Shown here: positions 556 through 54,238 of the stretch, piece after piece | Layout: every line of letters starts with the position of its first letter | Numbering within the stretch: position 1 is the first letter of the stretch | DNA from: Giardia intestinalis | Lineage: Eukaryota | Strand: one strand, 5' to 3' | Assembly (NCBI GenBank): GCA_000002435.2 | Contig: CM018793.1 | Length of the DNA: 64,000 nt | The notes under the pieces: model-generated | What the model saw: only the letters and a program-made list of their open reading frames with translations | Told to the model about the DNA's origin: nothing | The model's database searches: none | Position numbers and translations under genes: made by a program

Positions 556-1326
556 CTAATAGTATATGCCTTTCGTTGAGGACTTTTTCGTAAGCACTTT
601 TTGTAGCACTGATAGCCGTCTGCTAAGCTGATCGTTCAATATCAAGAACCCTTCTGTAATGTTCAAGTAGCTGTCATATATGTCATTTATCCGTGTGCAG
701 TCCATGTAAATCATTGCAAAGTAGGTGTCCAAGACGGGGGTCTTGCGAAGGTGCTTGATAAGAGCCCCTCGCGCCGTGTGATATGTGAGTACCTCAGAGG
801 TAGCGTTCTTCACATCTCCGATAAGCTCGTCGATCGTTTCGATAAGCTCATCAAGTGCCTCCTTTAGGTCGTGGTCTTCTGCAAGACGATTCTTCAGGAC
901 AAGGGTGTTCAGCCATCTCATGATTCGCATTAAGGCTCTATTCAAAACCGGTAACTCTTGATCCAATCGCTGCTGAAGTTCAACAATCTCTGGAACCTGC
1001 ATGCATACCTTCTGGATATTTAGGTGAGACGTTGGATCGAATGCCTCCAAGAGTTCCCGAGTTATCGCCAACTCTGGATCGGTGGTTGAGGAGTCCTCGC
1101 CAATAAGCAAGTTTGTCTCGAGGCGAACACAAAGCTGCTCGGAAAAGTGAGGTTGGAAGTAGGGGCAAGAAATCAAAAAGTCGTGAATGTCGATAGTCAG
1201 TGCAGGGAGAGCATACACGACAATGTCCAGAGCATCCTCCTTATTAGCCTTCCCGAGCGACTGATACTCCTTTTTCAGTTCTCGGGCCCGCTCAGAGGCT
1301 CGGATTGCCCCCGGCTTATGGTCCAT
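556..1326 (-). CDS. hypothetical alpha-helical protein (256 aa)
   Basis: Clean 256-aa ORF. It is packed tail-to-tail 10 bp from the MutS stop and 11 bp from the next minus-strand gene. Composition is globular and helical. No motif I can name. Confidence 0.4.
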   Translation of the reverse strand: MDHKPGAIRASERARELKKEYQSLGKANKEDALDIVVYALPALTIDIHDFLISCPYFQPHFSEQLCVRLETNLLIGEDSSTTDPELAITRELLEAFDPTSHLNIQKVCMQVPEIVELQQRLDQELPVLNRALMRIMRWLNTLVLKNRLAEDHDLKEALDELIETIDELIGDVKNATSEVLTYHTARGALIKHLRKTPVLDTYFAMIYMDCTRINDIYDSYLNITEGFLILNDQLSRRLSVLQKVLTKKSSTKGIYY

Positions 1327-2923: not shown

Positions 2924-4132
2924 CTAAGTGGATGCCCTGTAAGACATGCCAACTTTGGGGCTGACGCTACGACCGAGGTCAAATAAGTCGGAGTACCTTC
3001 GATTCTCATATGTCGAGGAGGAATCGCGAAGATAGCTTTTGCTGGAATCCACCAGTGAGTTGGTAGATCTGTAAACTGGGCTAGATGTTAAACTATCCAC
3101 TCTTCGCTGCATTGACTTCAGCTGTTCTAACTCCTCCACAAGAGATTCAAGCCGCTTGTGCATATACAGTATATTTGCATTGACTGTTTCGCAAGCAGCC
3201 CCTGTCACCTCCTCATTTGGATAGGTGTGCTTGAATAATGATGAACTACATATTTCTTTATATCTATTTTTGTAAAAGCAAAGCTCTGCTGCCAACGCTG
3301 TTGTATCTGTCCTGGCGAGGATATCTCTTTCTATGTTTTGCTCGTGTTGATGCAGCCTCGTAACATAGTGTTTTCGGAGAGCTGCCAGCTCTGCCTCACG
3401 ATCTAAAAGACTTATCTGGAGCTTCTTGATCTCCTCACGCTTGAGGTTTGCGATAGAGACTAGATCTTTGTCATCAGAGTAGTCTGCTCCCAAGAGAAGC
3501 GAAAGAGCACCCTTCATCCGCTCAGCTTTTCCGCAGAGAGAATTGTACTTGAGCATGACCTCTGCAGTATCTACGGCCTCTCCAGACTGCGCTCTTGACA
3601 TGAGGACCAAGACGGATGCCGTTCGGTCGGACGCCCGGTTAGAAGAGGCAAGCACCTGTTCTGGTGAATGCTTACCTGAGCCAGCCAAGAGAACAGCAGA
3701 CTCGTAGGAGTTTGTCCGCGCTGCATAGTCGAGAGCAGTCATTCCATCCTCGTCCTGGGCTCCGTCATAGTAAGGGAGTAAATGGAACAGCGCGCCGGCA
3801 GCATTGTTTTCTGCAGCTATCATCATAGCGTTGACCTTCCTCCGTGCAAGAAGCTTTGCCTCATATGGCGCCAAGATTGCAGTGATGTCGGCCATATTCC
3901 GGGCTGCAGCCTGCATCAGGGCTGTCGATCCATTCTTTCCATGGAAACATCCTGCCTCTTGCGGGGCAAGAACAGAGACAAGGGCCGTGTCGCTGTTTTT
4001 GATGGCGCACATCAGGGCTGTTTCTCCATATTCATTCATGGTCTTTGCATTGCGCTGGAGCATATGAATAACAGTGTTTATATCCCCCGCGTTAACTGCA
4101 CGGAACCAGGTCTCTCGTGGGGGAAAAAGCAT
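2924..4132 (-). CDS. ankyrin-repeat protein with C-terminal coiled coil (Giardia 'Protein 21.1' type, 402 aa)
   Basis: Repeated ankyrin consensus pieces: 'GETALMCAIKNSDTALVSVL', 'GSTALMQAAARNMADITAIL', 'VNAMMIAAENNAAGALFHLL', 'GMTALDYAARTNSYESAVLL'. The C-terminal third is coiled coil (LLDREAELAALRKHY..., LESLVEELEQLKSMQ). Confidence 0.75.
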   Translation of the reverse strand: MLFPPRETWFRAVNAGDINTVIHMLQRNAKTMNEYGETALMCAIKNSDTALVSVLAPQEAGCFHGKNGSTALMQAAARNMADITAILAPYEAKLLARRKVNAMMIAAENNAAGALFHLLPYYDGAQDEDGMTALDYAARTNSYESAVLLAGSGKHSPEQVLASSNRASDRTASVLVLMSRAQSGEAVDTAEVMLKYNSLCGKAERMKGALSLLLGADYSDDKDLVSIANLKREEIKKLQISLLDREAELAALRKHYVTRLHQHEQNIERDILARTDTTALAAELCFYKNRYKEICSSSLFKHTYPNEEVTGAACETVNANILYMHKRLESLVEELEQLKSMQRRVDSLTSSPVYRSTNSLVDSSKSYLRDSSSTYENRRYSDLFDLGRSVSPKVGMSYRAST

Positions 4133-4162
4133 GGGTCCAAAATTACTTTTTGCTCTTATGAA

Positions 4163-7100
4163 ATGGCTCTTTTCGACGGCTCACGCCCCGTATCTGTCCA
4201 TGACATAAGGCAGTTTACCGCTCGGGAGACTAGTAATGCTAGAAGGGTCGTTGCTGCCACAAAGCTCGTGCATTGGTACCGAAATGCACAGCTCAGAAAG
4301 TACGCACGGATCCGTCTCTCCCTTCAAAAGGCCTACTATAGAGGCCTGGTAAGAATGACATTTACGCGTTGGATTCGGTATTTTAGAATTTTGAAGACCT
4401 CTAGGACACGGATTTATCGCTACATTTTTGACCAATGGAGAGAGTCTATAAAGGAGACAATTACATCTGTGCGTTACTATGAAATGAAGCTGCTTGCACG
4501 TGTCTTTTTTCTCTGGCGGATGGATTCAGGGAGTCGTATTTGCTATATGGAATTATTGACAAAGGACAGAGGGCTTGATCCACACGTGAGGCAGCGCCTT
4601 GAAATGTTAAAGCTTCGTAGTATCTTGCTGTTCTGGCGTGCCCGGCAGGTGCTATCAAAGTGTCTCAACATCGGTTTGGAGCTGACTGTGAGCATAGGTG
4701 TAGTCGCCAGCAAGGTACCTCAAAGCTCTTCCAGCCCCATCTGGAAAGGGTATCTATATTATCTCAACTCTTTTGGGGTCATAGAATCAACGATATCTTC
4801 TAAGCTATCTGCAAGGCTCTTGTGGGATTCGTTTGCTAGCTGGAAGCATAAGGCTGTTACTATCTTGCGGAGAAAAAAGTTGGAGGTGGGGGTGCGTGAA
4901 CTGGAACTGAGATGGCTTCGGCCATTCTTCAAATCATGGGTTCTACTCCACCGGACTCGCCTCTACATTCTTGATCACGCAATTGTTCGGTGGCAGCTAG
5001 TTCTTTCTGTACACATTAGGCATGCAGAGGCAGTACGGGCTGCACTTGAGCTTCGCAAATATGCGCTCAAAAGGAGCCACTTCAATAGCTGGACAAGGTA
5101 TCTCTTTGCCCGTGAGCTGCATGCCCGTCACCATTGTTTAGAGAAGGTTTATGGCATGGCAGATAACGGTCACGAGAGGAGCTTTGTGTGCTCTGGCTGG
5201 TTAAAGTATGCTCTGTTCTTTGTCCACAGTCTCTTAAAAGATTATTGCCTGCAAGCAACTGCATTCAGATGCCTGCACAAGCTTAGATGTGCCATTGACG
5301 CCCCTAGGTGCTGGCGGAGGTTGACCGTGCTTGCTTGCGGGACCTATTATATTAGTCGCTTGCGCCTTTATCTACGGGCGTGGGCCTTTGTTGCTTTTAA
5401 GATGAAGACAATAGAGAAGAGACAGCGATCGTTTTGTGCCATCGACGACATTGTTTTCCAGCCTGCAGATATAAAGCTGTTGCATGACAAGCACAATGCT
5501 GAGCTCGCATGTCCTGAGAGTCTCTTTCTCATGGGGCTGATCTCCAAAAACAGTAGGATCCAGCCTCATCGTCTGGCGGTTCTGTGCAAAGGGGACAAGC
5601 ATAATTGCTTATTACTAATGAAGCTACGCAGGTATATCTCCTATCAGCCAACTGGAACTATACACTGTTTGTATAGGGGGCTGGATGATAGTGACGCGAT
5701 GGCAAGCGTAGATCGACTTTTATTTAAGTTTGCCATTGTGGCCATGACACGCCTTGGTAGCTATAATACCTGTTACATAGAAGCATATCGGAGTGAGTCC
5801 ACACTCAAACTAGAGAACCCTGCACAACATCGTCAAGCTATGGCACTGGTCCAGCGGAACCTAGCAATACGATATCATGAATTTTTAGCCGCAACCGATC
5901 TACTCTATGCTGATCTCTACACTAATGGACCCCAATCCCCTTCTGAAAAGAGGATTGGTGCATACATCTCTGGAAAATTTCCTCATATTAGAAAGGCGCT
6001 GGACACAGAGTCGGTTACTCTATTGACGACGGCCTTTCTGCTAGAGACACCAGCTATCATGTTTACAGATAGAAGAAGTGTGATCTCCTCTAGCTTCTTA
6101 CTACAGACGTGGATGGGACACAGGCAATCCTACGCCTCGCAACAAAAAGACAGGCCGCACCATGAGGACTTTCTTCAGTCTATTACCGCAGATTCTATCT
6201 CTATTGTTGATAATGTATATTTTACGGGGCTAAGTCGCGACTTTAATGCAAAAGGAGTGACTACGCTACTAGGCCCCAATGTTTTCCCTGTTGACAACTC
6301 TATTACCGCAGCAGAACGTGCTTCTTTATGTATGCAGCTCGAAGTGATAAAGAACAAACGCTTTTCTGTTTCGTCAGAGGCAGAGTGCTGGCTTCTGGGC
6401 GCTATTGCCAGTGCATCAGAGCGTGAGCTCCAGCTGTCGGCTATTTATAGAAGAAGACTTTATCTAAGACAAGCATCTCGTCTCCTAGCCTCGCCAATCC
6501 GCCAAGTTCCCTCGCAGCTCGCCCCTCTCGACGCTCTCGATAATGATGTTAGCAACGTCTCTGTTGCACCAGACGAAGAGCCTCTAGGCGTCACACATCT
6601 GTTTCAGCGTGCTCGAACCATCCAGGTGGATCGCTTTACAACAACATTGATTTCGACGGATGCAACACGTGTCACAGTGGACGAGATGAAGCATCTCGTT
6701 GAAACTGTGCGAACATCTGTTGTACATCCGTCTCTACTTACATACATAAATGCAAAAGCGCCGGAAGGTGAAGCAGCAACCACAATGGAGATTGCCGTTC
6801 CGGTCGAGTTAGAACCTCCAACCAGATCATTTGATGAACTCCTGAAGCTAGAAAGGAAGATCACTAGTACCGCCGTGAGAATTATAGAGAGATCATTCAG
6901 TATTGCTCCCCTTAGCCAAATCAACACAGGGTCGTTTTGTATGCTCCCAGATGAGCAATTGGTTAATTCATCTGATTTAAGCTTTCTGCAATCTTCGCAA
7001 CTACTTAGTAGGCAGAATTCTTATGTATCTCCATCTTTTGAGCAATACTCCCGTCCAACGGGACAGCACTTAAAGCCACGAAATTCTACCAAGAATTCCA

Positions 7101-10100
7101 CACAGGTGGACAAGTCTCGGCGCTTATCGTCGAAGAAGAAGTCTAAGCGTAAGTCAGGGAGCCTTTCTGCACACCCTGTTGCCAAGCAAAAGAAGTCTAA
7201 GCCAACTCATGGCATTCGCAAGTTAGAGCAAGGGAGGGTGTGTAGGACAGCAAGCTCTCCCAATAAACGGAAAGAAAAGGCCTATACAGCTATTGAGAGA
7301 GAGTGCTCGTTTTATTCTCATGATTCTAGTACTTCCTATCAAACTATAAGCACGGGTTCCTTCCATATACATGCCTCTGATGATACTCATGATGATGCAT
7401 CTCATGAAGCCGTCAATATACACGGACAAGCACATATGCCATCTGACAGCGACGCGTCTAAGCCAACAGTGAGCCTTCGTCCATACCCCTCCTACTACTC
7501 CTCTATTGCAGATGGGAGGCTGTCCTCTGGGCGTGCATTTTTGGGGAAATTGTCTAGCAGGCCTCAAACAACGGCTCCTTACTTAACTAGGCGCATAAAT
7601 AACAGTCAACGTAGCAGCGATACAGAGAGTTCTGACGATATCAAGTTCCAAAAGCAGCACAGGGTAGCGTCTGCAATAAGCTATGGAGCTCATACCAAGA
7701 AAAAGCATGAACTAGGTGGGCACAGTGCTGGCTCTAGTATAACAACTGTCGCCCCTACCACTGCGTATGTTGACGCAGCCTTGCCAACTAAGCAATTCAT
7801 TGAGGCACGGCTGACCTCTGGTCAGTTCACTTTAGATCTCTTGACACGCTACCAAAGGACACTTCTATCCCTTCGTATTTGGAAGAAATCGTTCCAGTGT
7901 TCAACGTATATCTTGCCAGAGTCTATCACATTCTTCCCAGAGATGGATCTCAAGTTCTATGCTCTCTCATCTGGACGAGCAGTTTTGTCACTGGATACAA
8001 TCATTGACACAATTCTCTATGACAACATTATGTTTTTGTATGACAACGAAGACCCGGATGAAGTGTTCCGAGAGATCTGGCTGACAGATCCTCAATTTGT
8101 TGACGTGAACACGCAGGACAATGCTATCTCCGTACCTTCAATTGTTCACCTGCACTTCACTAGGTTCTGGGACTACATAAAAATGCTATCGGATGAATAC
8201 ACATATGAGATAGCGTATGAAGGTGATTGTGCACTAGGAGACAAAGTTCTGCGCCCTACACGTTCTGCACCGATCCTCTATGGCAGAATGCTGTGCTGCT
8301 CGATGGCTGAGGCAGCTAACATGGCTAACAGTCTTGCAGAAGCAGCAGTCTCGTCCTTATTATATAAAGCATCCTTCCCATCTAGTGCACGATCCCGCAG
8401 CGGAACGGCTGCCTTTTCACAGCTGACCCTTGATGACCTGAGCGCTGAACTTGCATTTAGACAGAGTGCCCGTTATAACCATTTTCTTGAGAAACTAACC
8501 ACAGCCCCGTCATGCACTTCTCTACCAACAACGCAGAGAAAACGCCTCTCAGAGTTAGCTACTCCACAGATGAGCAGTTCACGACCTTCACCTAGACCAA
8601 TATACTCCGTTGTTAATATGTCTCTGTGTGACGATAATGTAGTCGCTGTTAGCATTTCCTCCCCCCACCTTTGGTCACGAGAAGGATCATGCCCTCCTGC
8701 TGATTCATTTGCAGAGGTGGCAAGCCCTCGTCCGGACTCCCAGTCCCACAATCGGGCGTACAGGGGTCACCTTTCATACACCCCCAAGATGGCCCGTTTA
8801 GCAGTAGATACAGACATGATAACAATGCCGAGTGCTTCGCATTACCTCCGGTCAAGCTCAACGCCTTCTAAAATGACAATCCCCCAGCCTCTTAGTCATT
8901 TGACAATCGATGAATCCTTGCTTACGGTCAAAGCAGAGCCAGAGCTACCTATAGTTGCTCCGGAAATTAAGCCGTTTCTTATATCCAATAGCGTAACAGA
9001 AAGGTTCACGAGCACAATCCATAAGACAAAAGAGATCTCACCTTCTGGCATTAGAAAAATGCAAAGTGGAAAGATTGGGGCTCTGGCTTATTCTGAATCA
9101 CGAGAGGTCCTGTTGTCACGACCGGCGTCTAAAAGCATACTCGACAAAACTCCGTCACTGACTGGCATTCTCTCAGATAACAGGGCCGACTCACTGACTC
9201 CGCTGGACGACGCTCTTGATAGAGAGCTGAGATCGGCGACGTGTAGCACAAAGAACAAGTTATGTGGTGTGATAGAAGAAGGCACAGAGCCCTCCCCTAA
9301 TCATAAAGAGCAGGGTTCCTTTGAGTCCCTTCGCGATCTTCGTGATAGTCTCATGGTACATAAGTGGGGAGATATGCGTCTTCTTGGGCAGAAGGACACT
9401 AGAATATGCAGCGCTTCTGAGTGTACACGTGCTACTAGCAGCCCACAGTTAGGCCACCGTGGAGAGTCTCTAGACTGCACTAAAAAGAGAACTGTAAAGA
9501 TTGGTGACAACTACTCCTCGATAGCTTCGCTCGCAGAAGCTTCGCCTACACTCACGTGTCTTAGCATGGTCCAAGCAGACGACCAACCTCACACCCATGA
9601 ACAGGTTGGGGTGTACCAACCACGGATCAGCAAATCAGTTCAGCGAGATCGTTCTCCCAATAGGCCGTCCTCTGGTCTAAAGGTATTCTGCTCATCATTA
9701 CAGGCACCAGAACACAAGGTTGATGAGGTAAAGCATATGCAGAGGCAAAATAGGATATTGATAGAACGCATCACTCCCTTGCCATCCACTGATCAACTGA
9801 TTGAAAAGATGGGTCCAGCAATACCTTCACTAATGGCGCCAGTGAGCAACCAAGAAGACTTTGGGAGCCTGAAGTTTCCTCTGGGAGACATTGGGGAAAC
9901 CTGCAAACACGTTGCCCACCACAACAATCCAATTAACCTCCAGTTCAGCCTTGATGATGCAGCAGGTACACCCCATAAAGATACATATAAAAACACAGCA
10001 TTAAGCCATGGTTTGGAGGTAGTATCTATAACAAATGGCAAAGTAGCGGAAACTCCCGCAACTGAAGACCTTCCATCTAGATGCCCACGAATAAAAACCC

Positions 10101-10549
10101 AAATACAGGGAGTCCTTTTCAAAGGTAACCGGGAGTCGGCTCATCACACGATAAATGCATTGAAGAAAGATCAGGTTGTGCTGAGTGCAAAGCAGAACTA
10201 CAGGCAATGCCTCTTCAACAAATCCGTCAACTTCGAACAAAAGACTTTTAACAGCATCCTCCGTCCGCATGAGATAGATAACAAATATAAGGAACTGCGA
10301 GAAAAGGTAACGTCAAGAGTTGGATCGCGTGCACCCTCAAGGCTAAGCTCTAGAGGGGACTTTGACTCCAGTAAGGGCTCACCTCCACTTCGACCACTTC
10401 TTACTAGTCCGGGTCGTCGCCGTGAAAACCTTCTTGTGATAACCATGGACCCCCCTACGCAAGCTGAGACGACAACAGATGAGATGGAGTCAACCGACGT
10501 TGGAATTAGAATCAACGAACGGTTGTTTGGGATTGGTTATGTATACTGA
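4163..10549 (+). CDS. giant protein (~2128 aa): N-terminal array of Sfi1-like Trp-containing repeats, then long Ser/Thr/Pro-rich low-complexity region
   Basis: The frame is open from 3782, but 3782-4162 is antisense to the ankyrin gene. The first ATG outside that overlap is at 4163 (ATGGCTCTTTTCGACGGC = MALFDG), which leaves a 30-bp divergent intergenic gap. Residues ~30-430 carry at least 12 motifs with hydrophobic-x-x-W-basic spacing every ~25-35 aa: LVHWYRNAQL, FTRWIRYFR, IFDQWRES, VFFLWRMD, ILLFWRARQ, FASWKHK, FFKSWVLL, AIVRWQLV, HFNSWTRYLF, CSGWLKYALFF, RCWRRLT, YLRAWAFVAF. The rest is S/T/P/R-rich. Confidence 0.6.
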   Translation: MALFDGSRPVSVHDIRQFTARETSNARRVVAATKLVHWYRNAQLRKYARIRLSLQKAYYRGLVRMTFTRWIRYFRILKTSRTRIYRYIFDQWRESIKETITSVRYYEMKLLARVFFLWRMDSGSRICYMELLTKDRGLDPHVRQRLEMLKLRSILLFWRARQVLSKCLNIGLELTVSIGVVASKVPQSSSSPIWKGYLYYLNSFGVIESTISSKLSARLLWDSFASWKHKAVTILRRKKLEVGVRELELRWLRPFFKSWVLLHRTRLYILDHAIVRWQLVLSVHIRHAEAVRAALELRKYALKRSHFNSWTRYLFARELHARHHCLEKVYGMADNGHERSFVCSGWLKYALFFVHSLLKDYCLQATAFRCLHKLRCAIDAPRCWRRLTVLACGTYYISRLRLYLRAWAFVAFKMKTIEKRQRSFCAIDDIVFQPADIKLLHDKHNAELACPESLFLMGLISKNSRIQPHRLAVLCKGDKHNCLLLMKLRRYISYQPTGTIHCLYRGLDDSDAMASVDRLLFKFAIVAMTRLGSYNTCYIEAYRSESTLKLENPAQHRQAMALVQRNLAIRYHEFLAATDLLYADLYTNGPQSPSEKRIGAYISGKFPHIRKALDTESVTLLTTAFLLETPAIMFTDRRSVISSSFLLQTWMGHRQSYASQQKDRPHHEDFLQSITADSISIVDNVYFTGLSRDFNAKGVTTLLGPNVFPVDNSITAAERASLCMQLEVIKNKRFSVSSEAECWLLGAIASASERELQLSAIYRRRLYLRQASRLLASPIRQVPSQLAPLDALDNDVSNVSVAPDEEPLGVTHLFQRARTIQVDRFTTTLISTDATRVTVDEMKHLVETVRTSVVHPSLLTYINAKAPEGEAATTMEIAVPVELEPPTRSFDELLKLERKITSTAVRIIERSFSIAPLSQINTGSFCMLPDEQLVNSSDLSFLQSSQLLSRQNSYVSPSFEQYSRPTGQHLKPRNSTKNSTQVDKSRRLSSKKKSKRKSGSLSAHPVAKQKKSKPTHGIRKLEQGRVCRTASSPNKRKEKAYTAIERECSFYSHDSSTSYQTISTGSFHIHASDDTHDDASHEAVNIHGQAHMPSDSDASKPTVSLRPYPSYYSSIADGRLSSGRAFLGKLSSRPQTTAPYLTRRINNSQRSSDTESSDDIKFQKQHRVASAISYGAHTKKKHELGGHSAGSSITTVAPTTAYVDAALPTKQFIEARLTSGQFTLDLLTRYQRTLLSLRIWKKSFQCSTYILPESITFFPEMDLKFYALSSGRAVLSLDTIIDTILYDNIMFLYDNEDPDEVFREIWLTDPQFVDVNTQDNAISVPSIVHLHFTRFWDYIKMLSDEYTYEIAYEGDCALGDKVLRPTRSAPILYGRMLCCSMAEAANMANSLAEAAVSSLLYKASFPSSARSRSGTAAFSQLTLDDLSAELAFRQSARYNHFLEKLTTAPSCTSLPTTQRKRLSELATPQMSSSRPSPRPIYSVVNMSLCDDNVVAVSISSPHLWSREGSCPPADSFAEVASPRPDSQSHNRAYRGHLSYTPKMARLAVDTDMITMPSASHYLRSSSTPSKMTIPQPLSHLTIDESLLTVKAEPELPIVAPEIKPFLISNSVTERFTSTIHKTKEISPSGIRKMQSGKIGALAYSESREVLLSRPASKSILDKTPSLTGILSDNRADSLTPLDDALDRELRSATCSTKNKLCGVIEEGTEPSPNHKEQGSFESLRDLRDSLMVHKWGDMRLLGQKDTRICSASECTRATSSPQLGHRGESLDCTKKRTVKIGDNYSSIASLAEASPTLTCLSMVQADDQPHTHEQVGVYQPRISKSVQRDRSPNRPSSGLKVFCSSLQAPEHKVDEVKHMQRQNRILIERITPLPSTDQLIEKMGPAIPSLMAPVSNQEDFGSLKFPLGDIGETCKHVAHHNNPINLQFSLDDAAGTPHKDTYKNTALSHGLEVVSITNGKVAETPATEDLPSRCPRIKTQIQGVLFKGNRESAHHTINALKKDQVVLSAKQNYRQCLFNKSVNFEQKTFNSILRPHEIDNKYKELREKVTSRVGSRAPSRLSSRGDFDSSKGSPPLRPLLTSPGRRRENLLVITMDPPTQAETTTDEMESTDVGIRINERLFGIGYVY

Positions 10550-11304
10550 CTCTCCGTTAATGTCTCTCGGATTGTTATTTTGTCTTCACTAGGGGAATTC
10601 TTAGGAACTTCGGCACGGGACTCCGTCGTCTTGTCGAGTGTTAATGTCAAATTGATTCCTGCTGACTTCTCTATGGCTGTTAGCCTGCTTTCTAGATCCA
10701 CGCGCTCTTGTCTCTCTATCAGCAACTGTTCCTCAAGCTTTTTGAGCTGACTCTCTAGGACTGTGTTTTCTGCTTGCAAAGATGCAATGCTAACTTCCAG
10801 CTTTCTGTTGTGTTGTGAAGATGTACTCCTGCACTCCGCACTTTTAGCCCGACGTTTTGGCGTTTTCAATGCACTGGTGGTTAGCGTTGCACTGGCAGAA
10901 ATAGGGGTTTGAACAGTGCTTTTCGATGGACGTCGACCTCGTTGTTGCATCGGTTTCGATTTCGGCCTTTTATGAGATGACTGTGCAGTGCGGGAGCGTA
11001 TAGGCGCCCTTCGAGCAGGTGCATTGACCAATTCAATTGTCTCCCTTTCTGATTCATAATCGTCTCCTGTACTCTTCAGTAAATGGCTTCTGTTTTCTAG
11101 CTCCATTTTGTGAATCGCCTCCCTGAGAATGGACAAAATGTGGGCCCGCGCGCGCTCTGATGCTCGATCCTTCACGACTGAGGCAATCGAAGATTTACGT
11201 GAGGCATCGTCTTGCAGTACGCGCTGGTGCTCTGTTTCAGGGGTCTTTCTCGACTCTGATCTCGATTCTGGTCGCCCCAGCCGTTTCTCTGCGCCATTTT
11301 GCAT
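10537..11304 (-). CDS. basic Ser/Arg-rich protein with C-terminal coiled coil (255 aa)
   Basis: 255-aa ORF. Its tail overlaps the giant gene by 13 bp (convergent). The C-terminal 70 aa are heptad-patterned (LEVSIASLQAENTVLESQLKKLEEQLLIERQERVDLESRL). The N-terminus is R/S/K-rich. Confidence 0.45.
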   Translation of the reverse strand: MQNGAEKRLGRPESRSESRKTPETEHQRVLQDDASRKSSIASVVKDRASERARAHILSILREAIHKMELENRSHLLKSTGDDYESERETIELVNAPARRAPIRSRTAQSSHKRPKSKPMQQRGRRPSKSTVQTPISASATLTTSALKTPKRRAKSAECRSTSSQHNRKLEVSIASLQAENTVLESQLKKLEEQLLIERQERVDLESRLTAIEKSAGINLTLTLDKTTESRAEVPKNSPSEDKITIRETLTESQYT

Positions 11305-11712: not shown

Positions 11713-12765
11713 TCACTCCTCTGCATCACAGACACCCTGCTCTCCAACGGCGAATGTCGCCTCTGCTTCGGGTAATGATGGGGAGTCATATATCTTAGCC
11801 ACGCGATTATTTCCGCGGCCCTTGCGGAGGTACAAACGGGTGGTGCTGGCGTGGGCGAGGATGTGACCCCCAATCGGCTTCTTGGGATCGGCAGTGAACA
11901 TCGCTGCACCGTCAACCTGCGCCATGACCTGGTTGGTGACGAAGATCGCGATGTTGAATTCGTCTGCAAGCTTTGCCAGACTAGCAAGGTGTTGCCCAAG
12001 TTTCTGCTGCCTGTCTGCAAGTTCTCCCCTGCCTGTGAAGTCCACCCTGAACAGCGCTGTGAGTGAGTCTATAATCAATAGCGCAAACTTTTTTTCTGAC
12101 ATCTGCTCTGCCGCTGCTGCAAGAAGCTCTATCTGCTGCTCGTGTGTGTACGCGCGAGCATATGCTATCCTAGACAGCGTTGTGGTGGGATCTAACTTGT
12201 ACCGCTCAGCAATGGGCCCAATTTTCTCAGGCCTGAAGGTGCCTTCTGTGTCTAAGTAGGCAACCCTACTGCCATCCAGCTGAGCAGTGACAGCGATGGT
12301 GTGGCAGAGCTGGGTTTTGCCTGATCGAAATTCTCCAAACACTTCTGTTATTGCCATGGATTCTATGCCGCCTCCTAGCAAAGCGTCCAAATCACTACAA
12401 CCAGTAGATATTCTTCTGATTCGCTGGCGACGCTCCAGTGCAACAACCCCGCTCATGAAGCCTGGTTGCGAATGCTTACGAGCGGCGTCTAAGATCTTAT
12501 CCACTTTTGCCTCTGACAGCCCCTTTATCTGCCCTAGATCTTTATGCGTTTGCATCAGTACTCCTTGAATGGAGAAAATGCCTGATTCACGAAGCCTCTT
12601 GGTGTCTGCGGCCGCTATTCCAAGTGCGTGCAGCTCCTCAATTGGCGCCCAAGTTTCCTTAGCCTCGTCTCCGGCTACAACCGGGGTCTCCGTGTCCGAT
12701 TGGGTGCATGACACGCTTGTCGAGAGGACATACTGTTCTTGGGCCTTCTTCACTGATCGGGACAT
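11713..12765 (-). CDS. DMC1: DMC1/RAD51-family strand-exchange recombinase
   Basis: Walker A '[13 protein letters not shown]' and Walker B '[35 protein letters not shown]'. Other conserved blocks: '[16 protein letters not shown]' and '[33 protein letters not shown]'. An N-terminal HhH segment '[13 protein letters not shown]' is present. The ORF is open back to 12936, but that extension overlaps the plus-strand ORF at 12843. I chose the internal ATG (MSRSVKK...) at 12765, which gives a ~350-aa Rad51-size protein. Confidence 0.85.
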   Translation of the reverse strand: [350 protein letters not shown]

Positions 12766-12842
12766 TGCTCTCACTAATTTGTTGGTAATGTAAACAGATG
12801 ATACATACATTCGCAGGCCGCGTATGCGTCGCATTAGCGAAA

Positions 12843-13292
12843 ATGCCGCCCCCGCGTATAGCCCTTGTGAATCCGATTGCATCACGTGCTCCTCCTGTTT
12901 CAGTGGAATGCGCACACAAGATGCTTGAGGACACACCTATTACGAGGTTACGAATAGGTATGAAGGAAGTTTTGCGCTTAACCCGGACGCGTTCAACTAG
13001 CCTGGTAGCCATCTTCTCCACGCTTCCTCTGCGTAACTTGCCGCTTCTTTTGGCTATGACAGCTCTGCATAAAGGAGTGCCATATACAGTGCTCCCTCCT
13101 AGTGACGAGTTTCGAAAACGAGCAATCAAGGAGTTCAAGATTGCCGGCGCTCCGATTGCTGTGGCCATCGTCGGTGCTCCAAACAATGACACCACTGTAG
13201 TAAGCACCGCATCTAAAAACGGGGTGCTTCTCAAAGAGCAAGGCTGTGTTTACACCTATGTGACCAATAATAATAACACACGAAAAGCATAG
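12843..13292 (+). CDS. hypothetical small protein with two hydrophobic segments (~149 aa from ATG at 12843)
   Basis: ORF 12798..13292. A verified ATG lies at 12843. Two hydrophobic stretches: 'LVAIFSTLPLRNLPLLLAMTAL' and 'IAGAPIAVAIVGA'. It fits between DMC1 (if that starts at 12765) and the Elf1 gene. The competing minus-strand ORFs here overlap DMC1 in another frame. Confidence 0.25.
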   Translation: MPPPRIALVNPIASRAPPVSVECAHKMLEDTPITRLRIGMKEVLRLTRTRSTSLVAIFSTLPLRNLPLLLAMTALHKGVPYTVLPPSDEFRKRAIKEFKIAGAPIAVAIVGAPNNDTTVVSTASKNGVLLKEQGCVYTYVTNNNNTRKA

Positions 13293-30135: not shown

Positions 30136-32403
30136 TTACTTCTTTATCAAGTAGACGATTAAAACGGCCGCAAATGCAAGTGCAACAATAGGAAGCATGC
30201 TTCCTCCTTGAGAAACCTGGGGGGTGGCCGGCTGCTGTGCGACAGGAGCAGCTGGCACAGGAGAGGCAGCTCTGGGGGCTGGGGCAGCGACAACAGAAGG
30301 CTGAGGCTCCACGACAGGTGCGGGTGGCTGGATGGTGACTACCGGCTGAGGAACTGGAGGCGTCGTTATGGGTTGCACAGACTCTGGAAGAGGCTCTTGT
30401 AGAGGAGGTTCATCAACCACAGAGGATGGAGCAGCCGGGAGTACAGGTTCCGGCGCTATGTTATGGACGACAGTAGGCGTAGCCTTCAGAACTGGCTTGG
30501 GGACAGGAGACTCACGCGTGACGGGCTGGTACTCCGGCTCAGGCGAAGCAACTCCATCCAGCTCCTCCTCGTTATAGTCATCGAGACGCTGCTGCTGAAT
30601 AGCCCCTTCCTCATAATGGCGCATAATCTCCAGTTTGTCGTTCTTAATTTCTTCATTAATAGCATCTGCTGTGTTCCCATCAATACATATGCTGTGCGTC
30701 GTGTAACGAGTGGACGAGGCGTGACCTGTGGCGTGGTTGAGCGATAGCTCTGCCGCCTTTTGGCTTTTGCTGGGGTCGAAGACGCTGAAATCGATGCCCT
30801 CCTCTTCCGCGAGTAGAGCCCTGGCTCTTTCAGGGTCAAAGTCATTGCCATAGAGAGGGAGAAGGATGGTTGTGTCCTCGGTGTCCATGTCCTCCTCTAT
30901 TATGGTAATGGTTAGATTTAGTTGATAACCTGTTTCTGCGTTGCCTGTGTGCGAGTACGACTTCACCTTATGACGCTCAGAAGAGTCGGTAAAATGCCAG
31001 TGGTCCTTGGAGTACTCCGAAAAGATGTCTTCATAACGAGGATGGAAAGACCAATACTTTGTGGGAAGATCTGAGTGGATGTACTCTATGCGATCGCGCA
31101 TCAAGAGGACGATGGATCGCTTTGAGCGATCGATCATATAGCGATTTATTGGGTACTGATAGGTCTTATCGATTAAAATAAACCGATCCTTAGGGACGTC
31201 CATAGACCCAAAGGCCCAGAGTCCGGCATTATTCTTATTCTTAGACTTGACTACTATGAGAATGATATAGGTGGTGGAGAATGCCACTGAAACGATCTCC
31301 GTATCCCCACCCTGCAGCTTTTGTGGCAGGTGGATAGCACGCTCCAGCCCGCCCATGTAATATAGATTAACGCACTTCGCGTCTTTTGTTTTTGCCTTGC
31401 TGTTGGTAGCTGTTACAAAGTAGAGCAGGTCTGGCGACGAGTCAAACACAGGGTACGTCCTGGCTTCTGTGGCTATGAAATTTGTCTGCAGAAGGCTGGC
31501 GTTGTCTCGTTCCAGACCAGCAACTCGTGGGCGCTGATGAAGGCTCAAATTGGTTATTGCTGCGGCAGGCCCATTCCCCTCGTAGACGAAGGAGCTATAA
31601 AAATCGAAGTAATCTCTGTACGAATAGCGCTCTATTTTGTTGATAAAGAGGGGACTCGGTGTGATATCACCAAGCTTCAGTTTGTATTCAATCAGTGTGA
31701 AGGGGGCTGCAGAGGAAGAGGAGCTCTTGAATATAGCTCTGAGGATGTTGAAGCTCAGCTGGAACCCAGATGATGTGTTCTCATAAATATTTGAGGTAGT
31801 AGGGTCAACTCCGTGGATCGTGTCGGTATTGTGAGAAGTCAGAGACTCTGGCTCGCTGATGGTAAGGCTCAAGGGGGCACCCTGCACTTGTAGGATGCCC
31901 TGCTTGTCTGCGCGGCTCAGGTTCGTCACGGAAAGAAAGATTCCCTTCTTGGTTGCGTAAGCAAAAACAACAAAGGCTGAGGAAACGGCCAACTTCAGGA
32001 TCTTGCTCTTTGGTTCCAGCGGGATAGGGGAAGAAGCAACAAGCTTCCCATTGGACTCAACCTTAACAACGACGACGCCAGCTGCGTTGCAATAAGCATA
32101 GCGGAAGTCAGTCCTTTCTCCGGGATAGACGACATACTTTGTAATGGGGGCAGCAAACTCCACGGAGTCAAAGCGTTCGCCAGTGACACAGTCACAGCAC
32201 TCCAGCTTCGATCCGCCATTATACACAAGTATAAGGAAAGTGGTGCCTTGAATCATGTGAACCTCCTCGAGATCTCCGACAGTTCCCATCTTGGATACCT
32301 TCTCAAACTCAGACGTGGAGAAGTAGTCACTGTTGTATCGCATGCGTTGCACGCTGACCTCCGCATCCTTTTCCGTAATGTTGAGATAGGTCTTGGGAAT
32401 CAT
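30136..32403 (-). CDS. hypothetical protein with Pro/Val/Gln-rich stalk and single C-terminal TM anchor (755 aa)
   Basis: Large globular N-terminal region. Then ~110 aa of P/V/Q/A-rich low complexity (PVPKPVLKATPTVVHNIAPEPVLPAAPSSVVDEPPLQEPLPESVQPITTPPVPQPVVTIQPPAPVVEPQP...). Then the TM 'MLPIVALAFAAVLIVYLIKK' at the extreme C-terminus. No N-terminal signal peptide is evident. Confidence 0.5.
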   Translation of the reverse strand: MIPKTYLNITEKDAEVSVQRMRYNSDYFSTSEFEKVSKMGTVGDLEEVHMIQGTTFLILVYNGGSKLECCDCVTGERFDSVEFAAPITKYVVYPGERTDFRYAYCNAAGVVVVKVESNGKLVASSPIPLEPKSKILKLAVSSAFVVFAYATKKGIFLSVTNLSRADKQGILQVQGAPLSLTISEPESLTSHNTDTIHGVDPTTSNIYENTSSGFQLSFNILRAIFKSSSSSAAPFTLIEYKLKLGDITPSPLFINKIERYSYRDYFDFYSSFVYEGNGPAAAITNLSLHQRPRVAGLERDNASLLQTNFIATEARTYPVFDSSPDLLYFVTATNSKAKTKDAKCVNLYYMGGLERAIHLPQKLQGGDTEIVSVAFSTTYIILIVVKSKNKNNAGLWAFGSMDVPKDRFILIDKTYQYPINRYMIDRSKRSIVLLMRDRIEYIHSDLPTKYWSFHPRYEDIFSEYSKDHWHFTDSSERHKVKSYSHTGNAETGYQLNLTITIIEEDMDTEDTTILLPLYGNDFDPERARALLAEEEGIDFSVFDPSKSQKAAELSLNHATGHASSTRYTTHSICIDGNTADAINEEIKNDKLEIMRHYEEGAIQQQRLDDYNEEELDGVASPEPEYQPVTRESPVPKPVLKATPTVVHNIAPEPVLPAAPSSVVDEPPLQEPLPESVQPITTPPVPQPVVTIQPPAPVVEPQPSVVAAPAPRAASPVPAAPVAQQPATPQVSQGGSMLPIVALAFAAVLIVYLIKK

Positions 32404-33445: not shown

Positions 33446-36400
33446 CTACATTATATCTTTGTAATCAAAGCCGTCGTTTTCCCACCGTGGCCCTAATCGA
33501 AGTCCATTTGCACGTATAGAATCCTCTATTATGTCCAGAAATTCCCCAAGATCGTTCTGAATGCATCCATCAGATTCATAGGCACCCACAATCTGCATTT
33601 CATGAGTCATACGTGATCCTGAGCTACGTTTGTCTGTGTGATTGGCTTTCCCCCACACTGTGTTTATGTACAAGGCACACAGTTCTTCTGTCTCTGCGAC
33701 TATGTCATTGTATCGCTCTATCTCTAGCATCTTGATTGCCCGAATACGCCTCTTCATACAGTCCTTTGAAAGCATTCGCAGTTTTTCCTGGGACATAAGA
33801 AGCTCATCCAGTACCTCGTTCTCTAGGCTCCTACCTTGTCTCAAGAGAAACTTAATGCACCGCACCTCTTCAAGCTCATGAATAGCTGAAAAGCCTGACT
33901 CGTAGGCACTGGCTATGCAATACGGTGTCTGGAAACAGCGATTGTCTACGTCCCCAATCAGAAGCGGATTAAGAAGAGGGTAATGTTCCCACAGGATTGT
34001 CAAGAACATCTCTATTTCTACTATGCGGGCATCTAGTGACGTATTCGTGCCCCACATATCTATTCCTTTAAGAACAGCCACCTGTGATGGATACTTGCTT
34101 ATGTTAGACTGTTGTATGACGTTCTTGACTAAGGACGAGTTCTTCACCGCAGAGAGAATGTGTGGGTCACTCTTCCGTGATCTCCGCATGACGGAAACAG
34201 CATCTTCTACTGTGCTGCTTTCAATACGGACCTGTAGGCTATGGCTCGGTAGTGGATGTGGACCAAACCGAGCTTTTGGTGCAGTGCTTTTTCGCTCCCA
34301 CAGCTGCGGAGAGACGTTAGACTTGATGTGCCTGTACGTATCGTTCACCGGTATGCTTGAAACTATATAGCCCCAAACTGCTTCGTCGATATATCTGTAC
34401 GATTCGTGTCTCGACCGAGATATTTGGCTCTTGTTGGCGTTTGCAAGTAGGTCTAAATACTCACGTATTAGCAAGCATACCTCCTGCACTGCATGAAGGA
34501 CAAGTTTAGAAAAGATGCTATCTCTACTGACATCATCACCAAGATCGGGGGGAGTATAGTAGGGAGACATAGAGAAGATAGACTGGTGCAAAGTCTGTGG
34601 TTGGAAAGATGATTGGCTGGGGAGAAGAACAGCATGGAACGAGCCACAGGCACATTTGGATGAAAGGGTCTGTACGCTTGATTGACGCTTGACCACAGAG
34701 GTGCCCGAAGTTGACCCTGTAGCATCAGGTTTTGCAGGATCTTCGTTTAACATGTTATTGTACCGGGCATCTGCCTTAGTAAGCTCCTCTTTGAAAAGCT
34801 TCTCTGCTGGTGTTCTAATGAGCTCAGAGGGATCCATGGGGATTATATCTAGCGTGCGCTCTTCTAAGGACCAAAGGGGGTTCCACAATGACCTAATTCT
34901 CTCTGGAGTGATATATCTGCATTTAGGAATGCTTATGGACCAGTAGTCTGTCAGAAACGTGTTTGTTGAATCTTCTGCTGACGGATTGGGCGGGTTTTCT
35001 GCATCAGGAATTAGTGGGGTGTTTTTCACCGTGATGTCTGTGCATAGAGTGTATGGAACGGTTGACCTCAATTCCCGCTGAGCGATATCAAAGATTGGTG
35101 CGGCACCACGCTCCTCTAAAAGTGTGTAGCGTTGGAATAGAGGGGCATGAATACTAGACAGATGTGCGGGGTCGTTTTCTCTCTCGTCTATTAGTGCCGA
35201 GATGCTGTCCAGGGTGGGAATAGGAAGAAGCCTTGACTCCCCCAGCTTTACCGGCCGGTGAAGAATGCGTTGATAGTTCTCCATCACCTTGTCCACAGAC
35301 TCATACGAGGGATGCTTTTTGGTACTTGCTATGTCACTGTCAGGACTTATCTTCCCTAATAGCACATGTTTGGCTATTTCCAATCCACGGCACCGGGCAA
35401 GTCGAATTATCTCCTTGCTCTTCCAGCGATCAAGCTTGTCGAGCGATCCATAGGACAGCAGAGATGGATGAATAGCAAGCATAAGATTTAGTAAAGGCCG
35501 TATACCGTGATGATAGTTGGGTAATGTAATAAGCTGCAGCTCGGAGGGCGTGAATGGGGAATCCGAGCACCTAAGGGGTGAACACAATCTGTTACTAATA
35601 GCACTTATTGATCGCCGCTCTTCATCAGTTCTTTGCACGCCACAACGCCGCTCTTGCAAATAATAGTACTTTGCAGTCTCCTCATCCTTTTCATCGAGAG
35701 TCTGGAAGTCAATGTCATCGTAGAGGATAGCCGCTTCAATGGACAGCATCAGGTCTTCATCAAAATCAAAGACACAGCCGTCCACAATCTCAAACAGAGC
35801 AGCATGATTTTCTATTACAAAGTCATAGATGTCATCCCAAATAGTGAAGGGAACGAGGGGATCATCGTCTTCCTGCACCGTCTTAATCAATTGATCATAA
35901 GCGCGAAGGGAGGAGAAGTCCTCTGCTTGTGGAAGCTTAGCTACAAGTAAAATAGATTTATCCGAGTCACAGCCTAATAAATGATAGAGCTGCTTTGTCA
36001 TATTCTCCTGGTCGTAGGTAGATGTCACCAGGAGATCGAGAACAGTTGTTGGAAGGATCTGTGACGAGGGGAGCTGTTTTGCAAAGGCAGAGAATTTCCT
36101 ATTATACAGTTTCGTCATTAGGATTGACGTTGCCAAATTAATAGACAACTGCCCGCTGGTTAGCATGCTAGAAATAAGGGAGTTTTGTGGGTCATATGTG
36201 TAGACTGCTTCGTTCAGATGCTTGGCCGTCAAGAGATATGATACCCTGTTAGAAACAAGACACGATGATGCCAAGTGTTGGACTTTTTCTTCAGGTTCTG
36301 TATTTTTTGCCAGTTTTGCTGCAGCACGGGGTAGAGAGTGTCCAAATTGAGCAGATGGCTCCTTCTGTGGCTCGTCGCTGTACACGCCTGTTGCAGTTTT

Positions 36401-39400
36401 TATAGCTTCAAGCTCTTGACTATGGATGCCATATGCTTCATAGTTAGTTAGGTCTAAGGTGGAGGAAGAATTCATGCTATTGGTACCTGGAGCATTCAGT
36501 GGTGCAGCTGCCAACGTAGCTATGCCCGTGAGGCTGTTCAGTGACATATTGCTTATTAAGCTTGTGCTAGCGGGGTAGAGGCAGCGCAACCCTTGACTGA
36601 CACCTGATATATTCGCTACAGTCCCATAATACTCATTGATGTCGAGTTGCTCCGACGATGGGGCAACCCACCCTCCAATCCTGTGGACGTCAAAGATCGA
36701 CTTCACGAAGAAGTACCCATACAGTGGCATATACACTATGGCTGGAACAAAGCATTTAGGATGGCAGAGCATGTCGTGAATTGTAGCGAGCAAGGACGTG
36801 TTAAAAAACGATCTCAGGCGTTGATTGGCGATTATTTGTTCCAGAACTCCGACAAAACTCGTGGAGCTGCTGAGTCCCTTTATACCCTCTGAAAGGAGCT
36901 GATAAAGCTGAAAGTTAATGTAGAATGTTAGAGATTGCTGCTTCCACGCATTTGCAATCTTCCAAGATATGTGTGGATTGGTACTGAGCACTTCGTTGTT
37001 CAGGCCAGGTACACTGGGTTGTGAGTGGGCACCCAACGAGGACATGCTGGTAGAAGCCTTCAGAGTAGCTACATCTAGAGGGCTAATGGAGATCCCAAGA
37101 GAAGAACAGTACTCGACACACTTCTTCTCATGGTCAAGGATGGTTAGATCCACAGAGCCAACTGAATGGGGAACCATGTATACACGTGAGTACTGAAGCC
37201 GTAGGTTCAATGGACTAAAGATTGGCAGGCGAAAAGGGCTGTTCATAATCAGAGCCAGGATGCACAAGAAGCTGACGGCCTTGGGAAATAGCTCCTCATC
37301 ATCAAAGCGAACAATATCAACAGACAGCCTTTGGATAGCAGACCCTAAAAGAACTGCATCAACGGTTTTCATGTATAGAGCAACGTTGGTGATGGCTGTC
37401 TCTACCTCACTTCGAGTCCCCGGGACGCTGATAAGAAAAGGTGATCTTTCCCTGTACTCTAAAAAGGAAACAACATTGGGAGGAAACAGCGAATCATAGT
37501 CACTGAATACTGGAGTAAACAACCTTGAGGAGTGGGAAAGATCAATGCTTGTGACAGTTGGAGGCATGCAGAGGCCCAATGCAGTAGTTAGGAAGCCTGT
37601 TGGACTTGTGTATTCAGCTCTTTGAAAAGAGGATGTCCAAGGGAGAGCCTTATCCACGTCGCCTCTACTATCTTTCTGTTCCGAATTAAGATCTTGTGCA
37701 CCGCTCTCAATCAATAGCCACGAGATATCGTTTAGTACATCAGACAGAAAGTCTAGGGGATCATTAAGTGTGCATGTGCAACTCTCGAAGAAGCCATGGG
37801 CGCATCTCTGTTCTCTTGGCGTAGAGCTATCGTAGGCTTGAGAGCCCATGGTCGGGCAAAGTATTCTATCCCTAACTAAGATAGATTGCATGTAAGGAAG
37901 CGAAAGGCCCCATATAAGGTAGATGGCTGGAATCCCTCCTCCTATTTCATCGTGAAGCACTAAGTCCCGTGCACCCAAAACTAACTTTGGAGCCTGCATA
38001 GGAGAGGGGATGAAGAGGGAGGTGAGAGATACTGATAGATCAATAAGAGAACCCACCAGAGAAGATACTGGCTGGGGTCCATGGTTCCACGAGGAGAGTA
38101 GAACACCTGGCAGGGTTTGGCTCATTGGGCCAGTAGCACCTGGGGTAGCACGCAGGTCCAGAAATGTGTGTGAAGGGTCTGGCGTAGCAGTTGATAGAGT
38201 CAAGCCAATATGCTCTCTAAATAGAGGGTATACCAATTCAATAGGCGCTGTATCAATATGGAGAAGCTCAGCATTGGGCAAGGAAAATATGAACAGCCCG
38301 CTTTCCGATATACCTTTGAAAAATGTAGCTGCACGTTCTTTCAGCGCTGGGTCCTTGCGTAGCTTAGAAAGTCCGAGTGAAAAGAGCGATGCAGCAGATC
38401 TATCCTCCATGACTTCACTCTTGCACCGAGAGTGAAGAACGAAGTGAAGCCCTGCTGTGTCTGGAGATCCAGTGATGGTATATGTGCTTAAATCTAAAAT
38501 AGAATTCAGTGACGCGTGTCCTATGGCAAGAGACCCAGTGCGAAAGTCAGGGGCAAGCGAAGCGAGGACAGCCTCGCCGTAATCCTTACAATACGCTTGC
38601 ATTATCCCAATCTTCTTATTGAGAATGCTGGTCAATACAGTACGTGTAAAGCTGGAACAAGACGGTGCTGCAAGGCGCTCAGAGGTATCTGTGAATTCCC
38701 TCTCATGGCCTAGTGAGGCAGAGCTGCTGTCGCTACTCTCATCAGCCTGGACAGTAGGCCTTTGAGATCCCCGCGCAGACACCTTAACGGTTGAGCTAGA
38801 TCGAAGTGTTACAGGATCGATGTCTACTTGAGGTGTTACGATAGAGCTAGACTTTAGAAGCGAAGACCCAAGAGTAGACAGGCCTAGAGACTCGTTAGAG
38901 CCGGCAGACAGCTCCATGTCATTTCCACGGAGACAGGCCTCAAGGGGCTCATCGAGAACTACCTTAAAAACATATTCTGATACGAACGGCTTTGTAGGGG
39001 ATGCTGCTTTGGTTTTGGAGTCGTGTCGGTGAGTTTTGCGATGAACTGAGTTTCCATGCTCAGCAACCTTGGATGCGGCATAATACGGTTCCAGCTCCTT
39101 GACTGTATTTAGCTCATCGAGGAATGATACTGGTAAAGGAATCTCCGGATCTATTACGATGTTACCCAAGATAATTTTTGTTATGAGCACTTGAGGCTTC
39201 GGTGAGTCCTTTTGGTCTTGAAGTGTGGACTTAATAAGCATCTTATCACTAAATGGAATCGGCAGTGTCTTTTTTGCATTGCTATCAGAATCTGTTAGTG
39301 TGAAAGTTAGAGTACTAGTAGATTGCTTAGGGCTTACTGGCAAGCTTTTTGCTTGATCAGATAGACGGAGTGGGGATGTATGAAGATGCGTTGGTTGGAC

Positions 39401-54231: not shown

Positions 54232-54238
54232 GTTTACT
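54232..54238 (-). promoter_or_regulatory. AGTAAAC putative polyadenylation signal overlapping the stop codon of the importin-like gene
   Basis: The plus strand reads gtttact at 54232-54238. On the minus strand this is AGTAAAC, with the gene's TAA stop (54234-54236) inside the motif. This arrangement is described for Giardia mRNAs. Confidence 0.45.

Follow-up and report, generated by a model that had tools for sequence, protein, structure and literature searches.

Does a very large hypothetical protein of Giardia begin with a string of docking sites for centrin? Giardia has two centrins, which are located at its eight basal bodies and at the spindle poles. A centrin-dependent tether between the basal bodies and the nuclei or spindle poles has been proposed (PMC4931700), and the Giardia papers that could be searched name no centrin-binding partner. 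The question is raised by GL50803_0036943 (also GL50803_36943) of Giardia intestinalis WB, a gene with the annotated product "hypothetical protein" at positions 4163-10549 (plus strand) of a 64,000-nucleotide stretch of contig CM018793.1 (GenBank assembly GCA_000002435.2), the whole of which is referred to here as the window. An earlier reading of the sequence, the original prediction, had described the first ~430 residues of this protein as an array of Sfi1-like, tryptophan-centred repeats. The tryptophan array is real and under selection, because its tryptophans are invariant and regularly spaced, the positions around them are specifically conserved and the ratio of nonsynonymous to synonymous substitution rates (dN/dS) is low. 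Judging from the sequence, we give a probability of roughly 45% to the array being Sfi1-like and specific to its lineage, with docking sites for centrin or for an EF-hand protein related to it. "Sfi1-like" is best read here in the motif-only sense in which the term has been applied to PfSlp of Plasmodium falciparum; the protein would not be a demonstrable Sfi1 orthologue.

The open reading frame (ORF) has its ATG at 4163 and ends with the stop codon at 10549, and its translation gives 2128 codons plus stop. The gene model of 2128 residues assumed in the original prediction agrees with the public assemblies, in which an identical gene call is present on 32 assembly blocks, and with NCBI (XP_037902198.1; UniRef A0A644F9Z4); the Giardia origin assumed there is likewise correct. 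Besides WB, the orthologues used here are that of P15 (assemblage E; 80% identity) and those of three Logan-derived lineages (64, 61 and 55%). The equivalent methionine is the start in all five orthologues, an AT-rich stretch lies immediately 5' of the ATG, and the opposite strand holds no competing ORF of at least 100 residues. Compared with the P15 orthologue, dN/dS is 0.21 for the whole protein and 0.17 for the N-terminus, which indicates purifying selection. The open frame itself reaches further upstream, to position 3782 (127 codons before the annotated ATG), and longer versions of 2161 and 2202 residues are found in some public gene calls. This upstream open stretch (3782-4162, plus strand) runs across the 5' end of a divergent ankyrin gene (2924-4132, minus strand), the annotated start codons of the two genes being only 30 bp apart.

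No paper naming GL50803_0036943 was found in the searchable literature. Prior recognition of the gene is possible, since Li et al. (2006) included the Sfi1 repeats of an unnamed Giardia lamblia protein in their sequence logo; that protein may or may not be the one discussed here.

Tryptophan array of the N-terminal region

All 12 tryptophan-containing strings quoted in the original prediction are present in the translation of positions 4163-5500. Tryptophan is concentrated in this part of the protein, with 15 of a total of 22 located in residues 1-450 (3.3%), as against seven in the other 1678 residues (0.4%; Fisher p = 2e-6). Thirteen of these 15 are invariant across the five orthologues (55-80% identity), the exceptions being W221 and W251, and within residues 1-430 invariance amounts to 87% for tryptophan compared with 48% for all residues. 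The 13 conserved sites lie in a basic, predicted helical region (residues 17-418; 4211-5416, plus strand) that is marked out by tryptophan enrichment, conservation, spacing and the dN/dS of 0.17.

Successive conserved tryptophans are 32, 22, 26, 40, 36, 33, 32, 18, 33, 36, 38 and 23 residues apart, a range of 18-40 that does not bear out the ~25-35 residues claimed at first. Even so, the spacing is regular (mean 30.8 residues, coefficient of variation 0.23), and equally regular random placements arise with a frequency of ~5e-6. When the flanks are aligned on the tryptophans their similarity reaches z = 4.3, a value attained by none of 2000 shuffles and none of 2000 random-anchor sets. Internal self-similarity sought without this anchor is not above shuffles (z = 0.85).

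The context of the tryptophans is conserved position by position. Of the 13 conserved sites, 10 have at W-3 and eight have at W-7 a residue that is hydrophobic in every one of the five orthologues; these are the two peaks, with just one or two of 13 sites at the neighbouring positions -1, -2, -5 and -6. Phenylalanine is found at W-3 in 6 of the 15 sites (p = 5e-5). A hydrophobic(-7)-x3-hydrophobic(-3)-x2-W triad occurs eight times, compared with 2.3 expected from shuffles (P = 0.001). Charged residues (D/E/K/R), with a background of ~26%, are present once in 15 sites at W-4 and never at W+4. The minimal motif [FLW]xxW[KR] has five conserved matches against 0.45 expected (P = 0.0008 for at least four), and in the other ORFs of the window, 16,691 residues in all, it is matched once. 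At least 12 copies of a hydrophobic-x-x-W-basic motif had been claimed: the hydrophobic residue at W-3 is indeed there in 10 sites, but the strict hydrophobic-x-x-W-[KR] fits only four N-terminal sites (W92, W118, W158 and W227), rising to seven when the basic residue is allowed at either +1 or +2.

Eight sites carry the complete triad in all orthologues, in what is termed below the reversed orientation. Site 2 (W70; LVRMTFTRWI, 4346-4375; all sites are on the plus strand) combines Val or Ile at -7 with Phe at -3 and is kept in the five orthologues. The minimal motif is added in site 3 (W92; IYRYIFDQWR, 4412-4441), site 5 (W158; KLRSILLFWR, 4610-4639) and site 7 (W227; LLWDSFASWK, 4817-4846), the last of which encloses the non-conserved W221, while site 4 (W118; LLARVFFLWR, 4490-4519) is the closest fit to LLx3Fx2W[KR]. 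In site 8 (W259; WLRPFFKSWV, 4913-4942) the triad encloses the invariant Pro254, and W251 is not conserved. Site 9 (W277; ILDHAIVRWQ, 4967-4996) has its tryptophan 18 residues downstream of W259, and the two are too close together for two full Sfi1-type sites. Site 13 (W407; RLRLYLRAWA, 5357-5386) belongs to the most conserved N-terminal block.

Two further sites have the hydrophobic residue at W-3 alone. These are site 1 (W38; VAATKLVHWY, 4250-4279), with Ala at -7 and a resemblance to an IQ motif lacking its Q, and site 10 (W310; LKRSHFNSWT, 5066-5095), with Phe at -3 and Lys at -7, whose tryptophan starts a predicted helix. The upstream pattern is absent at the other three, W194, W346 and W384, where conserved hydrophobic residues are found downstream at +3 and +6/+7 and the tryptophan falls in the first turn of a helix predicted with low confidence. 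These three can be read as forward triads (1-4-8): site 6 (W194; WKGYLYYL, 4742-4765) with a conserved W1-Y4-L8 at a helix start after a Pro/Ser loop, site 11 (W346; WLKYALFF, 5198-5221), which is of the forward type only and is preceded by a variable Gly-rich loop, and site 12 (W384; WRRLTVLA, 5312-5335), also forward only, with Pro at -3.

Residues 1-430 have a pI of 10.6 and a net charge of +51. Structure was predicted with AlphaFold2 (AF2) from five-sequence alignments for residues 1-480 and 421-1000. Because confidence is low for residues 1-480 (predicted local distance difference test, pLDDT, 37.5; predicted template modelling score, pTM, 0.25), only the secondary structure of this model is usable. 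It is almost all helix, with 13 helices over residues 12-420, among them 12-79, 85-120, 140-169, 192-208, 213-240, 245-264, 266-300, 309-329, 346-357 and 381-420. The breaks coincide with the conserved G123, P138/P140, G171, P186, P192, G196, P254 and G331, and likewise with P95, P122 and P267 of some orthologues, so that the array probably consists of about five helical segments and not of one rod. A single long alpha-helix had been expected; at a pLDDT of 37.5 the mostly helical character is recovered, but the continuity is not.

Sfi1 definitions and rival explanations

Sfi1 repeats have been defined by the consensus AX7LLX3[F/L]X2W[K/R], with repeats 23-35 residues apart in yeast and 33 in human (Kilmartin, 2003). 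In the logo of Li et al. (2006) W stands at position 26, F/L at 23, LL at 18-19 and A at 10, charged residues are scarce at 22 and 30, and a single helix holds an unbroken series of 20-24 repeats. LLx3[F/L]x2W has been given for Sfi1 repeats (PMC2063913), and their centrin-binding triad is reversed, L8-x3-L4-x2-W1, the forward orientation being that of XPC and Kar1 (PMC8622359). The Giardia array shares some of this. The core of the Li et al. (2006) logo, hydrophobic at W-7/-8 and at W-3, is present in all five orthologues at 8 of the 13 conserved tryptophans. The conserved hydrophobics at W-3 and W-7 take the places of L4 and L8 in the reversed triad, which supports centrin docking, and the depletion of charge at W-4 and W+4 agrees with logo positions 22 and 30. 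The excess of [FLW]xxW[KR] is of the kind by which PfSlp was recognised on motif alone. Eight of the 12 intervals between tryptophans are inside the 23-36 residues of Sfi1, those outside being 18, 22, 38 and 40, and the validated human repeat R17 (PDB 2K2I chain B) aligns in register to the Giardia repeat profile, tryptophan on tryptophan.

A number of observations weigh against a docking array of this kind. The alignment of R17 scores 2.3 bits, which is not significant and is equalled by 8% of shuffles with the tryptophan fixed, and the unanchored self-similarity at shuffle level counts on the same side. The original prediction had stated that a missing Sfi1 profile match together with a missing periodicity would speak against it, and the first half of this came about: hmmscan against Pfam-A (E ≤ 10), run with the full protein and with residues 1-479, gave no match to Sfi1 (PF08457) and just two chance-level matches, DUF6321 and YGL204C. 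The first rule of Kilmartin, A-x(12)-[FL]-x(2)-W-[KRH], which calls for at least three copies, finds none in WB and the four orthologues; the second, [FWL]xxW[KRH]-x(21,34)-[FWL]xxW[KRH], which calls for at least two, finds one (W92-W118), and the pair W118-W158 falls outside by one residue. Alanine is present at W-16 in only two sites, and spacings of 18 and 22 residues are below any Sfi1 repeat length. Where Sfi1 has 20-24 continuous repeats on one proline-poor helix, 13 sites with conserved Pro/Gly breaks are found here; prolines inside or between sites include the invariant P186 and P254 and, in some orthologues, those at 95, 122, 138, 267 and 381, and the AF2 pLDDT of 37.5 is too low to show an extended helix. 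The triad alone is unspecific, because any amphipathic helix gives hydrophobics at i, i-3 and i-7. Finally, GL50803_36943 is not in the table of Giardia basal-body proteins (McInally and Dawson, 2016, Table 1), which covers known and candidate proteins and contains neither Sfi1 nor a centrin-binding partner. The hallmark of the Sfi1 family that had been claimed thus holds for the triad, the charge depletion at W-4 and W+4 and the enrichment of [FLW]xxW[KR], but not for the Pfam profile, the Kilmartin rules or continuous repeats.

Homology searches point the same way for family membership. With full-length, profile and metagenome searches no relatives were detected outside the G. duodenalis lineages. 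A repeat profile made from 12 sites in three lineages (A1) retrieved only its own Giardia family from 1.84 billion representative proteins, its matches including P0020, a close-orthologue fragment near-identical to P0017, and it found no Sfi1p chain in PDB at E ≤ 10; both results add to the case against the docking array. A phmmer search of PDB with residues 1-450 gave nothing relevant, a scan of metagenomes turned up no distant relatives, and Foldseek with the low-confidence AF2 model gave no meaningful match in PDB (all with E ≥ 3, probability ≤ 0.06 and template modelling score, TM, ≤ 0.15). A word-indexed homologue search with residues 1-479 found no match, even to the query itself; because the full-length query found the family, as five Giardia clusters, the null result of this search with a basic, repeat-like fragment is untrustworthy. 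In a calibration, an idealised three-repeat Sfi1 consensus likewise failed to retrieve the Sfi1p chains of PDB. For this reason the HMMER negatives are weak evidence here, and they lower the claim that the protein is an Sfi1 family member much more than the claim that it works like Sfi1.

If the array does dock an EF-hand protein, its ~420 residues would offer a Giardia-specific series of ~10-13 sites for a small partner, most likely one or both of the Giardia centrins, GL50803_6744 (Glcent1) and GL50803_104685 (Glcent2). Each site would be a basic amphipathic helix whose invariant tryptophan enters the hydrophobic pocket of the centrin C-lobe, backed up by the hydrophobics 3 and 7 positions upstream (the Sfi1-type 8-4-1 arrangement, in eight complete and two partial sites); in three sites the supporting residues would lie downstream, in the 1-4-8 orientation of XPC and Kar1. 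Some five helical segments, with short and conserved Pro/Gly loops between them, might then make a segmented centrin string rather than a stiff rod, which the remaining ~1700 residues could anchor or regulate, and the high basic charge (pI 10.6, +51) would complement acidic EF-hand proteins. The helical state, taken from a low-confidence model, the partner and any basal-body role of the protein are what we infer. A more specific proposal counts 8-10 reversed sites of the Sfi1 type and three forward sites of the XPC/Kar1 type, and sees in the protein the centrin scaffold that has long been missing in Giardia, a segmented, lineage-specific Sfi1 analogue of mixed triad orientations that links the basal-body tetrads to the nuclei or spindle poles; we consider it unlikely in this full form.

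The same features could belong to a degenerate alpha-solenoid of the TPR/HAT kind, with units of ~31-34 residues, the tryptophans in the helix-packing core and no EF-hand partner, the basic surface of which might hold an acidic ligand such as nucleic acid or tubulin tails. The period of ~31 residues is near that of TPR/HAT units, the helices predicted from residue 120 onwards are 10-40 residues long with conserved Pro/Gly loops between them, several tryptophans stand at helix starts, and packed helices in general show hydrophobics at i, i-3 and i-7. Most of the very weak Foldseek matches are to TPR proteins (such as Naa15, CSN, KBP and P58IPK), but with the values given above and a model of pLDDT 37.5 they have no weight. 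Pfam gives no TPR, HAT, Sel1 or PPR match at E ≤ 10, the prediction for residues 1-120 shows, in place of hairpins, two very long helices of 68 and 36 residues, the acidic residue at W+7 typical of HAT is not found, and a pTM of 0.25 is no sign of a compact fold. A solenoid is thus conceivable, if doubtful. The composition of the segment, rich in Trp, Arg and Leu, could also have produced the array as a functionless by-product, and self-similarity at shuffle level would fit with this. Such an origin is already disfavoured and appears highly improbable to us, as 13 tryptophans are invariant against variation at roughly half of the remaining residues, the spacing has p ~5e-6, conservation is specific to -3 and -7, and dN/dS is 0.17.

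Two further explanations concern the partner and the descent of the array. The partner might be calmodulin, or else a light chain that resembles it and is specific to Giardia, with the N-terminus serving as an IQ-like lever or regulatory region. Basic amphipathic helices anchored by tryptophan are also typical calmodulin targets, site 1 (AATKLVHWYRNAQLRK) is spaced like an IQ motif with V replacing Q, and the sequence has no power to discriminate between EF-hand partners. What makes a non-centrin partner improbable in our view is that neither a strict nor a relaxed IQ motif occurs in the whole protein, that Pfam IQ is not matched (E ≤ 10), that the -3/-7 pattern with a C-terminal tryptophan is the Sfi1/centrin orientation, and that the Sfi1-like repeats of POC5 bind centrin and not calmodulin (PMC2700515). 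Alternatively, the gene could be the true Giardia orthologue of Sfi1, diverged past profile detection and with about half of its repeats lost. Sfi1 is extremely divergent, with 24.5% identity even within Saccharomyces, the calibration with the idealised consensus weakens the HMMER negatives, and among the Sfi1 sequences of Li et al. (2006) is one from Giardia lamblia, this protein or another. Set against this are Pfam, both of the Kilmartin rules for ScanProsite, the 20-24 continuous repeats and the proline-poor continuous helix, all of which fail; and with homologues detected in the G. duodenalis lineages only, descent from Sfi1 is untraceable. We find orthology correspondingly hard to credit.

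The remaining protein and the rest of the window

The other 1708 residues of the protein (421-2128; 5423-10546, plus strand) have no recognisable domain and no Pfam match, and according to the conservation profile they are about as conserved as the N-terminus. The original prediction had spoken of a Ser/Thr-rich tail of ~1700 residues; the enrichment is there but only moderate (~18-25%, compared with 12% in the N-terminus). The AF2 model of residues 421-1000 is uninformative (pLDDT 29.6). An isolated minimal motif, LRIWK, lies in the middle of the protein around W1240 (residues 1237-1241; 7871-7885, plus strand) and is kept in the five orthologues, and an invariant block, DNEDPDEVFREIWLTDPQF, is found ~55 residues downstream of it.

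Downstream of the gene, a 255-residue ORF without a Pfam match (10537-11304, minus strand) has a 13-bp tail-to-tail overlap with the 3' end of GL50803_0036943. It is followed by a Rad51/Dmc1-type recombinase (11713-12936, minus strand; Pfam Rad51, E = 5e-112), whose ATG start is probably internal because the listed ORF begins at GTG. As expected for a eukaryote, these two neighbours and the ankyrin protein give no functional hint.

Elsewhere in the window, a 293-residue protein (57704-58585, plus strand) has an Enkurin domain (E = 4e-15), that of a calmodulin-binding flagellar family, and is a second gene of the EF-hand-partner type in the window; its sequence is unrelated to GL50803_0036943. 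An 840-residue radial spokehead-like protein is encoded at 60784-63306 (minus strand; Pfam Radial_spoke, E = 1e-29). A second giant ORF (33446-40666, minus strand; 2406 residues, no Pfam match) has 18 tryptophans, and it is not a similar array, since it contains only two triads and one minimal motif. At 556-1326 (minus strand) a borderline match to the C-terminal domain of the proteasome activator PA28 was obtained (20.0 bits, with a cutoff of 20.9; E = 6e-4). Five long ORFs of 755-1142 residues match no Pfam family at E ≤ 0.001 and are typical Giardia orphan proteins (30136-32403, 48448-51456 and 54234-57284 on the minus strand; 40932-44360 and 44920-47445 on the plus strand).

Comparison with known systems

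With Sfi1p and human SFI1 (PDB 2DOQ, 2GV5, 2K2I) the Giardia protein shares the tryptophan anchor with hydrophobics at -3 and -7/-8, the low charge at W-4 and W+4, and a basic helical region that is part of a larger protein and has flanks that are not conserved. The spacing between tryptophans is 23-36 residues in fungal Sfi1 and 33 elsewhere, and mostly 22-40 in Giardia. The Giardia protein differs in having no Pfam match, almost no Ala at -16 and [KR] at +1 in just 5 of 13 sites; it has 13 sites and not 20-24, cut by Pro/Gly into about five segments, and three of them are forward triads. Its array is also at the extreme N-terminus, where that of Sfi1 is central, and it has no detectable relatives outside Giardia.

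POC5, of which a Giardia homologue has been reported (PMC2700515), is comparable in that a few Sfi1-like, tryptophan-centred sites are set in a larger protein, and those of POC5 are specific for centrin over calmodulin. POC5 has only three such sites, along with coiled coils and a conserved 21-residue signature, whereas neither the signature nor a Pfam match is present in the Giardia protein. The IQ arrays of myosin necks and ASPM are tandem, basic, helical EF-hand sites, as those of Giardia may be, with a period of ~23-30 residues, but their motif, [FILV]Qxxx[RK]Gxxx[RK], is not found in the Giardia protein.

Among very large proteins of this type, PtCenBP1 of Paramecium is said to have been described by Gogendeau and colleagues in 2007 as a giant Sfi1-repeat protein. 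The GSBPs of Spirostomum are giant Sfi1-repeat proteins as well (PMC9946354). The likeness of both to the Giardia protein is in great size and in many repeats for centrin (putative ones in Giardia), those of the ciliates forming Ca2+-responsive fibres; the difference is that tens of regular repeats fill the ciliate proteins, while the Giardia array is irregular and takes up ~20% of the protein. Assigned by the same logic is PfSlp (PF3D7_0710000) of Plasmodium falciparum, which was named Sfi1-like from [FLW]xxW[KR] in spite of having no Sfi1 homology, was recovered by centrin co-immunoprecipitation and was localised to the centriolar plaque (PMC10180636). Both are giant, parasite-specific proteins recognised only by an accumulation of this motif; PfSlp has the support of co-immunoprecipitation and localisation, and the Giardia protein is known from its sequence, with five strict motifs.

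GL50803_36943 is a concrete candidate for the centrin partner of Giardia, with about a dozen plausible docking sites. If this is true, it would be, after PfSlp, another case of an Sfi1-type function in proteins without traceable homology, and would bear on the rebuilding of centrin-based fibres in divergent eukaryotes; if not, what is left is a helical domain that is conserved but orphan. Centrin scaffolds that are Sfi1-like and either giant or divergent are already established through PfSlp and the GSBP and CenBP proteins of ciliates, and GL50803_36943 is at best an atypical new member of this group, set apart by a segmented, mixed-orientation array that is N-terminal and restricted to its lineage.

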